A stretch of 32,000 bases of DNA from Candidatus Jordarchaeales archaeon (GTDB lineage Archaea; Asgardarchaeota; Jordiarchaeia; Jordiarchaeales; Freyrarchaeaceae): positions 170,120 through 202,119 of the forward strand of contig JAWCFL010000001.1 of assembly GCA_038858525.1 (NCBI GenBank). Direction: 5' to 3'. The position numbers and the translations under genes were made by a program. Under the pieces are notes generated by a model. That model had not been told where the DNA came from, searched no databases, and saw only the letters and a program-made list of their open reading frames with translations. This document shows positions 6,819 to 21,121 of this stretch, piece by piece. Numbering within the stretch: the stretch's first letter is position 1; each line of letters begins with the position of its first letter.

Positions 6819-7880
6819 ATGACGGTGATTTATGTGCCCAAGATCATTCCGCCGGAGGGTTTGAAAAGAAAGGTTATCGTTAAGAGTGAAGAGGAAACCA
6901 GTGAGGAGTACGGTAAACGTCCTAGCGAGAGGAGTGTGGAGGAGCTTTTAGAGGGGTGCTTCGTGAACATAGATAAGCCGGCAGGCCCGACCAGCCACGA
7001 AGTTTCTTCCTGGGTAAGGAGAATTTTGGGTTGCTCAAAAACTGGACATGCAGGGACACTAGAACCCCTTCAGACTTTGAAGGGGTGGTGAAATCCTAAG
7101 GTTACTGGGGTCTTGCCGGTTGCGGTAGGGTCTGCTACAAAGGTTATACAGGCCCTTCACCTTATAGGGAAAGAATACGTTTGCGTTATGAGGCTCCACG
7201 AGGATGTTGAGGGCGAAAGGATCAAGAAGATCTGTAAGGAGTTTACTGGGCCAATCTATCAGAGGCCGCCGATACGTTCCTCGGTGAAGCGAAGGCTTAG
7301 AGTAAGACGGATATATTACCTCGACGTGCTTGAGGTGGAAGGAAGAAATGTCCTGCTGAGAATAGGATGCGAGTCTGGGACGTACATAAGGAAGCTTTGC
7401 CACGACATAGGGGAGGCGTTAGGGTGCGGCGCTCACATGCGCGAGCTTAGAAGAACTCGAAGTGGACCTTTTACCGAGAGAAACATGGTAACGCTACACG
7501 ACTTAAAGGACGCCTATGTTTTTTGGAAGGAGGAGGGTGATGAAGCTCCCATCAGAAAAGTGTTATTACCAGTAGAGGAGGGAGTGCAGCACTTGCCCAA
7601 GTTTTTCGTGAGGGACTCAGCTGTTGACGCCATATGTCATGGAGCGGACTTAGCTGTTCCCGGCGTAGTCAAGCTTGAAGATGGAGTGGAGAAGGGTGAT
7701 GTGGTCGCGATCTTGACTCTTAAGGGTGAACTAGTCGCTCTGGGCGTTGCCCTGATGACCGTAGAGGAAGTTGTAAGAGAAAAGCGGGGAATAGCGGTTA
7801 AAACGACAAGAGTAATAATGAGCAAAGGAACTTACCCAAAACTCTGGAAAAGCAAGAAGAATAGCGGTTCAATCACGTAG
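6819..7880 (+). CDS. cbf5: H/ACA pseudouridine synthase Cbf5, join(6819..7062,7093..7880), 343 aa after splicing
   Basis: Two same-frame ORFs separated by TGA 7089-7091. Removing 7063-7092 restores [15 protein letters not shown] with the catalytic Asp. [25 protein letters not shown] and PUA domain present. Start could be GTG 6834. Confidence 0.95.
7063..7092 (+). other. BHB (tRNA-type) intron in cbf5, 30 nt
   Basis: Exon helix GGGA/UCCU; central helix CACU(7057-60)/GGUG(7087-90); bulges AG^A and AA^A; perfect 9-bp intron stem ACCCCUUCA/UGAAGGGGU with a GACUU loop. Confidence 0.96.
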
Positions 7881-7952: not shown

Positions 7953-8258
7953 TTGAAGTACCCTAAAGTTAGGCGAACTTATTGTCCACGATGTAAAACA
8001 CACACAGAACACTCAGTTAGCGTCTATAAGAAAGGTAAGGATAGGGCACTGGCCGCAGGAGCTAGGCGCTATGCAAGGAAGAAGAGGGGTTATGGAAGCC
8101 AGCCTAAGCTCTTCTATGTCTTATAGAAGAGGGGTAAGCCCGTTCAGAGGGAGTTCGCGAAGACCACTAAGAAGGTTAGCTTTAAGCTTAAATGCAAGGA
8201 GTGCGGTCATACGCTCCACACTAAAGGTATCCGCCTCAAAAAGGCTGAAGCAATTTAA
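7953..8258 (+). CDS. rpl44e: 50S ribosomal protein L44e (eL42), join(7953..8107,8138..8258), 91 aa after splicing; missed by the ORF track
   Basis: [20 protein letters not shown]...[16 protein letters not shown]|[23 protein letters not shown]. In-frame TAG at 8124-8126 lies inside the insertion. Confidence 0.95.
8108..8137 (+). other. BHB intron in rpl44e, 30 nt
   Basis: Central helix GCCU(8102-05)/GGGU(8132-35); bulges AA^G and AA^G; perfect 9-bp stem CUCUUCUAU/AUAGAAGAG with a GUCUU loop; outer exon helix weak. Confidence 0.92.
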
Positions 8259-8274
8259 AGGGGGGATTTAAAAA

Positions 8275-8481
8275 TTGAGGAAAAAACGCGAGGTCATTCC
8301 GCAACCAAGAAGCCGCTTTTTGAAGGTTCAGTGTACTGACTGCGGCGCAGAAAACATAGTTTTTGATAGAGCAAGCACTACAGTTAAGTGCTATATTTGC
8401 GGGAAAGTTTTAGCTGAGCCGAGAGGAGGAAAGGCGCTCCTTCTAGTAAAAAAGGAGAACGTGATTCAAATTTTAAGTTGA
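8275..8481 (+). CDS. rps27e: 30S ribosomal protein S27e (eS27)
   Basis: PQPRSRFLKVQCTDC...VKCYICGKVLAEPRGGKA zinc finger. Confidence 0.96.
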   Translation: MRKKREVIPQPRSRFLKVQCTDCGAENIVFDRASTTVKCYICGKVLAEPRGGKALLLVKKENVIQILS

Positions 8482-16461: not shown

Positions 16462-17492
16462 TCACCTCTCACTCTCAACCCATGATACTTGAACCTCGTC
16501 AAGCCTCCACCTCGGCTTCACGTAGCTTTCCTCCACCCTTAGGATCCTTCCACTAACATACTCTAATATTCCTGTCCAGGCGATCATTGCTCCATTATCT
16601 CCTGCCAACTGCTGGGGGACCACGTGGAAGGAGGCGCCATGCTCCTCAGCTATCACTCTGATCATTTCTTGCAACCTCCTGTTTCTGCCGACACCTCCCG
16701 TCAGTAGAACGTCACCTTTACGCGTGTGCGCCAGAGCCCTCTCAGTCACTTCAGCCAGCATGGAGAAGCAGACTTCCTGAACGCTGTAGCACAGATCTTC
16801 AACTTTGCAACTACCAATCTTGCCAACCGCAGCGGTGTAAACCCCAGAATAGGAGAGGTCCATTCCCTTGACGACATATGGCAGCGGAATAAAAGTGCTT
16901 CCTTTACTCGCCAGCTCTTCGACCTTTGGCCCGCCAGGATGCTTTAAACCCAGCGCCCTAGCGAGCATGTCAAGCATGTTTCCGATGGCCAAGTCAAGCG
17001 TCTCCCCAAAGACACGGTACCTGCCTTTCTCGTAAGCTGCAACCAGAGTGTTTCCTCCAGAAACATACAACGTTAAGGGGTCTTCAACGTTCTCGGTGAG
17101 ACGCCCAATTTCTATGTGGGCTAAACAGTGATTAACGCCCACTAAGGGAACGTTTAACGCCAGTGCAAGCGCTCTGGCAGCCGTCGCCACCGTTCTCAGG
17201 CAAGGGCCTTTGGGGGCTTCGCCAACCCCGGCCCTTGAGAGAACGCGACCAAGTTAACCTCACTTATTTTGATTCCGGCTTCGCTTATAGCTGAGGTGAT
17301 CGCCTGCTTAACCGCGTTCGAGTGGTGCTGCGCGGCTTCCCTAGGGTGGATCCCGCCCTCAGCGGGCACATACTCGTCTCTGATGTTCGCTAGAATTTCT
17401 CCTTCACTACTTGCCACTCCTACACCTAAAGTGTGAGCTGTTCCTTCGAGCCCCATGCATAGCAGGCGGCGGCCGCCCAGTGCCTTCCTCAC
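16462..17492 (-). CDS. kae1: t6A synthase Kae1 (TsaD), complement(join(16462..17209,17224..17492)), about 338 aa after splicing
   Basis: N-terminal LEGTAHT, GGIHPREAAQHH and FSQGPG are in one frame. ATAARALA, VNHCLAHIE, VSGGNT and GDNGAMIA are in another. Removing 17210-17223 gives FSQGPGLGPCLRTVATAAR. Start codon (GTG 17492) is uncertain. Confidence 0.93.
17210..17223 (-). other. Minimal BHB intron in kae1, 14 nt (GGCGAAGCCCCCAA)
   Basis: mRNA reads CAAGGGCC GGGG UU^G GC GAA GC CCCC AA^A GGCCCUUG: 8-bp exon helix, 4-bp G-C central helix, two 3-nt bulges and a 2-bp stem with a GAA loop. Confidence 0.94.
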
Positions 17493-19853: not shown

Positions 19854-21121
19854 TAAGCCTCCACCTTCCCGAAACCATCCTGCTCACAGCCACCCTCTGA
19901 CCATCCTCAGCACACACAGGACGCCGCAGCGCCACTTCAACCTCCCCACTCCTAATCGACGATACAACGCCCACTGTCACCGCCGACCCAACATTCAGCA
20001 TTAAAGCCTCATTAACACGCACATTCTCCACCCTGGAAAGCTCCTCGCTTCCCACAACCCTATCCATCAGGTGAAGCTCAATACACAAATCCTCACGCAC
20101 GGGAGGAAGGGTCCCGGGAGAACCTACAACGTTCCCAATCAAACCATCAGCCTTCGTCAAAGAGGGGTCCAGCCGCGTACCAACACCAATCAACCCACCT
20201 GGCAAAGCTTCCTCAAGCCACACGTCACCAGCATGCAAACTTACAACGTCAGCATAAATAGGCTCAAACTTACCTTTAACAGCAACTCCCGGACGAATTT
20301 CAACCTCATCCCCAACCCTAACTCTACCTTGAATAATGGTTCCACCAATAACGCCCCCAACAAGATCCTCAGGCCTAGTTCCCGGCTTATTCACATCAAA
20401 TGACCTCGCCACATACATCCTCAAAGGCTTACCCGGGTCTCTAACCGGATTAGGAATATGCTCTTCCATGAACTGCAACAAAGCATCCAAATTAACACCA
20501 AAAACAGCCGAAACAGGAACAATAGGAGCATCCTCAGCAAAACTACCACCAATAAACCTCTTAATCTGTCTAAAGTTTTCTAATGCCTTCTCCCTAGAAA
20601 CAAGCTCAACCTTATTCTGAACAATAACAACATTCCTCACACCAATAATCTCCAAAGCCGCAAAGTGCTCTCTAGTCTGCGGCTGAGGGCAAAACTCATT
20701 AGCAGCAACAACAAAAACACAACCATCCATCAAAGACGCACCACTAATCATGGTCGCCATTAACCGCTCATGACCAGGACTATCCACAAAGCTGACCTTC
20801 CTCACAAACTCAGCTTCACTCCCACACTTAGGGCACTTCCACCCCCCAGCCATAGCCAAAGTAAAGTAGCAGTCAGGAGGCGGGCAAGATGGACACTTCA
20901 AAATAATAGCATCAGCATAACCCAACTTAATCGTAATACCACGACGCTTCTCCTCACTATGACGATCAGTCCACACACCAGCCAAAGCCTGCACAAGCGT
21001 GGTTCTTGGCCCGCGAGAGAGACACTCCCAACGGATTGCCATGATCCACGTCTCTAGCACCAGCTGATCAACAGCTGGCGAGTCCAGCTGTTCCCACAGA
21101 AACTAAAGCCTGCGTACTCAT
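19831..21121 (-). CDS. eif2g: Translation initiation factor 2 gamma subunit (aIF2-gamma), complement(join(19831..21004,21036..21051,21082..21121)), 409 aa after splicing
   Basis: The ORF-track protein lacks the P-loop. Removing two inserts gives [61 protein letters not shown], NKVE and RWRLIGWG motifs are downstream. Confidence 0.94.
21005..21035 (-). other. BHB intron 2 in eif2g, 31 nt
   Basis: Central helix UGGC/GCCA (4 Watson-Crick pairs); bulges AA^U and AG^A; intron stem CCGU-U-GGGAG/CUCUC-GCGG. Splicing restores the P-loop Lys codon (AA+A). Confidence 0.92.
21052..21081 (-). other. BHB intron 1 in eif2g, 30 nt
   Basis: Central helix CUGG/CUAG; bulges AC^U and AG^A; 9-bp stem CGCCAGCUG/CAGCUGGUG with a UUGAU loop; in-frame TGA at 21070-21068. 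Splicing restores the His codon (C+AC). Confidence 0.92.

Follow-up and report, generated by a model that had tools for sequence, protein, structure and literature searches.

Why does the reading frame of an archaeal ribosomal protein gene break off inside a loop that contacts tRNA? The gene is rpl44e, coding for the ribosomal protein eL42 (L44e), of Candidatus Jordarchaeum, an Asgard archaeon, and it was analysed in a DNA stretch of 32,000 nucleotides, called here the window. The sequence at the site reads GGT TAT GGA AGC CAG CCT AAG CTC TTC TAT GTC TTA TAG, and the open reading frame 7953-8126 encodes, from a TTG at 7953, a product of 57 residues in which GYGSQPK is followed by LFYVL and by the TAG at 8124-8126. 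The original prediction was that a 30-nt insert with an in-frame TAG interrupts the Lys codon of GYGSQPK/PVQ. Upon deletion of 30 nt (8108-8137), an open frame of 91 codons with the C-terminal end AEAI was obtained, as predicted. Because the flanks repeat, six equivalent deletion registers lead to the identical product. The predicted spliced junction is CAGCCTAA joined to GCCCGTTCAG, with exactly 30 nt removed. The list of open reading frames had also been said to miss the gene, which is true at its default cut-off of 60 aa, and only there is the 57-aa frame of exon 1 missed. The exons and the neighbouring gene are the following:

7953..8107, + strand: rpl44e exon 1, with the TTG start, 51 codons and the AA of the split Lys codon (ORF list, PF00935, spliced translation)
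8138..8260, + strand: rpl44e exon 2, with the G of the Lys codon, 39 codons and the TAA stop at 8258-8260 (PF00935, pN/pS)
8275..8481, + strand: rps27e, intact, directly downstream of rpl44e (Pfam PF01667)

The PF00935 model (Ribosomal_L44) matched exon 1 over positions 1-37 (E 9e-13) and exon 2 over positions 38-74 (E 1e-10), i.e. positions 1-74 of 76 for the two halves together. As the two matches abut across the insert, nothing is missing from the protein and nothing is added to it. The spliced translation presents the zinc-ribbon cysteines CPRC and CKEC, and its GxGxQxK loop is GYGSQPK. The interrupted Lys corresponds to Lys-53 in the GGQTK motif of human eL42, whose loop is conserved and touches the tRNA CCA end (PMC5418926, PMC4150381); the high conservation and the position near tRNA CCA ends that had been stated for this loop are therefore documented. 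The genome (2.09 Mb, 63 contigs, 92.7% complete) contains one L44e locus, with no second intact rpl44e. The L44e-S27e-eIF2alpha gene neighbourhood is conserved, with the same neighbours in relatives.

The insert and its flanks are predicted to fold into a bulge-helix-bulge (BHB)-like element with the following parts:

8108..8137, + strand: predicted 30-nt BHB-type intron with the in-frame TAG at 8124-8126 (same site interrupted in 13 assemblies; covariation)
8102..8105, + strand: H1, exon side of the central 4-bp helix, GCCT, pairing with 8132-8135 (98% of cells paired)
8106..8108, + strand: 5' bulge AAG, unpaired in RNAfold and RNAalifold, with a cut AA/G predicted from frame restoration in 13/13 sequences
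8109..8131, + strand: inner hairpin h', a perfect 9-bp stem of 8109-8117 with 8123-8131, in which 4/9 pairs change on both sides
8118-8122, + strand: loop GTCTT of 5 nt, closing the inner stem h'
8132..8135, + strand: H2, intron side of the central helix, GGGT (RNAalifold, pairing across the alignment)
8136..8138, + strand: 3' splice region AAG with a predicted cut AA/G, of relaxed and not canonical geometry (RNAalifold and RNAfold)

The minimum free energy structure given by RNAfold is this intron fold (−16.3 kcal/mol, 57% of the ensemble, z −2.24). The core of a canonical BHB is present, with a 4-bp helix GCCT/GGGT and AAG after each strand, and so is the inner helix h', which has 9 bp here and 8-10 bp in relatives (90% of cells paired). 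For the outer helix h of the canonical hBHBh' motif, RNAalifold and RNAfold give only 2 bp (G:C and Y:R). The AA of the 3' AAG lies opposite CA (8100-8101) in a 2x2 loop closed by these 2 bp (8098-8099 with 8138-8139), so that the 3' cut would fall in a 2x2 loop and not in a closed 3-nt bulge. As modelled, the rpl44e element is of the relaxed (HBh'-like) motif class and not canonical. The span 8102-8138 proposed at the outset runs exactly from H1 through the 3' bulge. Of the 9-bp stem and two AAG bulges proposed with it, the perfect stem and the 5' bulge stand, but the 3' AAG does not form a clean bulge of 3 nt. Each strand is read 5' to 3' as four helix bases, a 3-nt bulge and a cut after the second bulge base, and the AA+G joining expected from the BHB-like fold agrees with frame restoration. 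The hairpin shape alone occurs at the chance rate in the window (52 looser BHB-like shapes compared with about 46 expected from shuffles); therefore the case rests on the coincidence of the shape with exact frame restoration, and on conservation.

An 11-nt direct repeat, AGAAGAGGGGT, is present at 8080-8090 in exon 1 and at 8125-8135 in the intron 3' arm, and permits an alternative pairing of the intron 5' arm with the exon. The repeat is species-specific (0/500 shuffles reached 11 nt, and relatives share only 4-7 nt). An origin of the intron by copying from the upstream exon was considered and rejected: the repeat is real here and, being absent from relatives, says nothing about where the intron came from.

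The same Lys codon is interrupted in 10 of the 11 species genomes of the order (the Asgard group that goes by the name Jordarchaeia or Freyarchaeia) and on 3 additional public contigs, obtained from ENA, Logan and JGI. Within the order, the interrupted genomes comprise 4/4 of the other genomes of the Jordarchaeum family and 5/6 of those of Freyarchaeum, the genus of the sister family. In Jordarchaeum, two species have an insert of 30 nt and two others one of 29 nt; the family's second genus also has 29 nt. Most Freyarchaeum sequences have 33 nt, and a single one has 34 nt. The in-frame inserts of 30 and 33 nt contain TAG, or TAG and TAA. A comparison of relatives had been proposed with the original prediction, and its outcome is an interruption at the same site, with lengths that include frame-shifting ones. 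When the cuts were placed after the second bulge base, an open frame and a Lys codon (AA+G or AA+A) were obtained in 13/13 interrupted sequences. The spliced coding sequence has 273 nt (91 codons) in 14/15 of the sequences built, 12/13 of those with the insert, the exception (G002) having 285 nt.

The fold is conserved as well. In the alignment of the 13 interrupted sequences (A1), 92.8% of the pair cells were formed, compared with 46-54% after the partners had been shifted by 1-3 columns. Changes on both sides occur in four pairs, and covariation scores 0.217, compared with 0.166 for shuffled alignments, none of 500 being as high, although these statistics overstate independence because the sequences are related. 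The central helix H1/H2 varies only between G-C and G-U across relatives, and RNAalifold, run with flanks wider by 30 nt, recovers the helix, the bulge and h' unprompted. Intron identity (0.76-0.85) is higher than third-codon identity in the same gene (0.42-0.73), as would be expected if the fold is under selection. The 29-nt inserts deviate by one base and fit only with a 5' bulge of 4 nt or a central helix of 3 bp, and several relatives present 1-2 mismatches low in the inner stem.

Taken from the sequences and their comparison, the 30-nt insert is very probably a bulge-helix-bulge (tRNA-type) intron in the rpl44e pre-mRNA that is removed by EndA and RtcB, and the mRNA would almost certainly be cut and rejoined by tRNA-splicing enzymes before eL42 synthesis. 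We infer the following course of cleavage and ligation, with its exact cut sites and circularisation. GCCT, the last four bases of exon 1 before the Lys codon, would pair with GGGT near the 3' end of the insert, and the 9-bp hairpin would stack on this central helix, leaving both AAG triplets unpaired. The splicing endonuclease would then cut after the second A on each side (A8107 and A8137), RtcB would ligate AA to G to give the AAG Lys codon and an eL42 of 91 residues, and the excised 30-mer would probably leave as a small circle. As the unspliced mRNA gives a fragment of 57 residues without the second zinc-binding Cys pair, splicing would be obligatory for eL42.

The genome encodes RtcB (E 5e-181) and two EndA-family (PF01974) proteins, of which the alpha-like one has Tyr/His/Lys and the beta-like one lacks the His, the subunits being assigned by motif inspection only. 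This two-subunit type of splicing endonuclease is reported to accept non-canonical or relaxed introns (PMC5829648). The spliced junction, searched as a degenerate pattern, was absent from the JGI contig collection, in which records close to this genome may be lacking, and two protein searches and a cluster listing gave no database protein identical to any predicted spliced product. The full-length database L44e matches are intron-less alleles on multi-gene DNA contigs.

The non-canonical 3' site could also be taken to mean that the intron is removed from the RNA by means other than EndA and RtcB, or that it is spliced in part, so that splicing efficiency sets the supply of eL42; the exon copy of AGAAGAGGGGT (about 8080-8090), which can compete for the hairpin 5' arm, points the same way. 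We consider this improbable, since the central helix, the 5' bulge and the symmetry of the cuts fit EndA, the relaxed motif is of the sort that this enzyme type is reported to accept (PMC5829648), the competing repeat is absent from relatives, and 29-34 nt are too few for a self-splicing intron.

Translational recoding, either by read-through of the TAG (e.g. with pyrrolysine) or by a ribosome hop from AAG to AAG as in phage T4 gene 60, appears still less credible and very unlikely. The identical take-off and landing triplets, with a hairpin after the first, resemble gene 60 bypassing superficially, but the 29-nt inserts begin with AAT and end with AAA, which leaves no matching Lys codon, and hopping between matched codons cannot explain them. 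Read-through is ruled out by the frame shift of the 29- and 34-nt inserts together with the stops, TAG or TAG plus TAA, carried also by the 33-nt ones, and would add 10-11 residues inside the most conserved loop. Pyrrolysine read-through was rejected in addition because PylS was not found in the genome (best match 32.5 bits against a cut-off of 178 bits); among Asgard archaea, Pyl recoding is reported only for Sifarchaeia (PMC9723677).

Over the whole coding sequence, pN/pS is 0.04-0.24, with pS of 0.5-0.95 (near-saturated synonymous divergence), and for exon 2 alone, downstream of the stop, pN/pS is 0.04-0.31. The exons are therefore under strong purifying selection, and rpl44e is in use in every lineage. 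That the gene is a pseudogene or the insert an error of assembly, eL42 being dispensable or coming from a copy missing in the assembly, is scarcely conceivable even for a metagenome-assembled genome of 63 contigs and 92.7% completeness, in which a second copy could be hidden, given this selection on both exons, a spliced length kept at 91 codons, no second locus in any relative, and an insert which, far from lacking DNA support, is present in 13 independent and distinct assemblies from four data sources.

In the locus tree, the Jordarchaeum family and the genus Freyarchaeum separate with 100/100 support each, and the intron is present in both. Four alleles are intron-less, namely that of the complete genome of Candidatus Freyarchaeum deiterrae (G006) and those of three DNA contigs, and all lie inside Freyarchaeum. 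One such allele groups as the sister of an intron-bearing contig (support 94/98), and no bootstrap tree allows a single presence/absence change, bearing in mind that the locus is short and that recombination could mimic repeated loss in the rpl44e tree. The simplest reading of these sequences is that the intron was present in the ancestor of the order and was then lost precisely at least once, probably two or more times, in Freyarchaeum. Within Jordarchaeum, the intron length changed between 29 and 30 nt with the gene unharmed. Among the rows listed for 400 sampled Asgard genomes, no interrupted L44e was found outside the order, and 80 metagenome L44e loci of other lineages were all uninterrupted. 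Odd low-scoring L44e matches elsewhere in the phylum proved to be genes cut by contig ends.

Other genes of this genome are interrupted in the same way, two of them inside the window, where cbf5 serves as a positive control:

6819..7880, + strand: cbf5, with a 30-nt intron at 7063-7092 that splits the Asp codon of GTLDP
21052-21081 (30 nt) and 21005-21035 (31 nt), - strand: two inserts in the aIF2gamma gene, whose removal restores the GHVDHGKT P-loop
C1:145116-145146, - strand; C2:6357-6386, + strand; C4:81118-81146, + strand; C2:68773-68802, + strand: inserts of 29-31 nt with an AAR 3' bulge, on other contigs of the genome (G000)

Exon 1 of cbf5 matches Pfam DKCLD and exon 2 matches TruB_N, TruB_C_2 and PUA, the open reading frame being restored by removal of the intron. 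Located 1 kb upstream of rpl44e, the intron folds as a full hBHBh' whose outer helix has 4 bp; its stem has 9 bp and its loop 5 nt. As predicted from the sequence, this intron would extend the classic crenarchaeal case to an Asgard archaeon. In aIF2gamma, the double removal restores VGTAGHVDHGKTTLVQALAG and leaves a micro-exon of 16 nt inside the P-loop motif. The four inserts outside the window interrupt PCMT, an AIR-synthase-family gene, an EF-Tu-family GTPase and probably gatE. Pfam matches continue across the inserts for PCMT (2-59, then 61-193), AIRS (2-48, then 49-100) and GTP_EFTU (2-80, then 82-176). Six further mRNA introns are thereby supported besides that of rpl44e, and that of gatE, a probable mRNA intron, would be the seventh. 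These Pfam-continuous inserts place rpl44e as one of a population of putative mRNA introns.

A genome-wide scan for a strict BHB shape combined with ORF joining gave 29 raw passes (27 distinct sites) compared with about 23.5 at random positions; being no better than random, it was not counted as evidence. Two long-stem matches without the AAR bulge were discarded as ordinary gene boundaries. The strict scan also returned a hairpin candidate at window positions 17209-17237. An AAR 3' bulge is present in 9/27 passing sites, compared with 5% expected. The supported introns have AAA or AAG as their 3' bulge and AAG, AGA, ACA or AAA as their 5' bulge; such A-rich bulges may reflect a sequence preference of the endonuclease of this lineage.

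With these genes, one may ask whether tRNA enzymes splice mRNA routinely in the lineage. That the tRNA-splicing enzymes of Jordarchaeia/Freyarchaeia form an obligatory mRNA splicing system for dozens of genes, with introns gained and precisely lost, is a proposal that we hold to be evenly balanced between right and wrong; its targets would include eL42, aIF2gamma, Cbf5, the EF-Tu-family GTPase and GatE, with the introns in the most conserved codons. If true, close relatives of eukaryotes would have an intron-rich gene organisation that is independent of the spliceosome, and the output of ribosomes and translation factors could be tied to EndA/RtcB activity. For rpl44e itself, an essential single-copy ribosomal protein gene appears to have depended on splicing in Asgard archaea since before the families of the order diverged. 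Its intron is a clean, short substrate on which relaxed BHB recognition could be studied without a tRNA body, and its repeated precise losses would be a natural experiment on intron turnover.

There are also effects on annotation. Public databases hold L44e as fragments of 56-58 residues, and one of 86 (P0001-P0005 and P0008), because gene callers stop inside the intron. Where rpl44e is truncated or missed, marker-gene sets and the completeness estimates of these genomes are distorted. The record of one relative (G004) is labelled 'Thermoproteota archaeon', yet the genome belongs to the Jordarchaeum family.

Among known systems, the splicing of HAC1/XBP1 mRNA by IRE1 and RtcB in eukaryotes is likewise independent of the spliceosome and removes a short intron from a coding region, with an RtcB-type ligase in animals. 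The IRE1 system is unlike that proposed for rpl44e in that it uses another nuclease and another recognition motif, is stress-regulated and is eukaryotic.

Non-canonical tRNA introns with relaxed HBh' motifs were reportedly described by Marck and Grosjean in 2003. Such introns are abundant in Freyarchaeia and Atabeyarchaeia, and 92-95% of the tRNA genes of the lineage contain introns, many at non-canonical positions (PMC11291895). Intron papers on Freyarchaeia and Asgard archaea cover tRNA genes only (PMC11291895; 10.64898/2026.10.13.758758), and introns are not mentioned in the paper naming Jordarchaeia (PMC9723677). The rpl44e element shares with the relaxed tRNA introns the 4-bp helix, the 3-nt bulge and the inner stem, and presumably the same enzymes, whereas its host is an mRNA without a tRNA body and its junction must restore the frame.

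The other archaeal mRNA case in the papers searched besides cbf5 is a BHB in the 5'UTR of HVO_1309 of Haloferax volcanii (PMC7714728). It is, in the same way, an mRNA substrate of an archaeal splicing endonuclease, but it lies in an untranslated leader, interrupts no codon and leaves an intact protein without splicing (PMC7714728).

Judged by sequence, the conserved relaxed BHB intron of rpl44e in all likelihood joins the kind known from cbf5, with a ribosomal protein gene as a new host. To our knowledge, cbf5 has for more than 20 years been cited as the one archaeal gene whose protein-coding region contains a tRNA-type intron. Watanabe is said to have described the BHB intron of the cbf5 pre-mRNA in Crenarchaeota in 2002. 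In the papers searched, cbf5 is the only archaeal mRNA with BHB introns in the coding region and no intron is described in an archaeal ribosomal protein gene, as the original prediction had supposed (PMC7714728, PMC2738675); the reference list of PMC12397907 likewise gives cbf5 as the sole coding-region case. The cbf5 intron is present in Aeropyrum, Sulfolobales and Desulfurococcales (Yokobori 2009, PMC2738675). In both the crenarchaeal cbf5 and rpl44e, a short BHB-type intron lies within the coding region, the gene belongs to the translation apparatus, the lineage has an endonuclease of two subunits, and the intron is present or absent among relatives through precise loss. The two cases differ in that rpl44e is a ribosomal protein gene in an Asgard phylum, and in that cbf5 splicing was shown experimentally whereas that of rpl44e is predicted here from sequence. 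Within the window, the cbf5 and rpl44e introns have an identical layout (30 nt, a 9-bp stem and a 5-nt loop), the rpl44e motif being relaxed at its 3' side, whereas that of cbf5 is a full hBHBh'.
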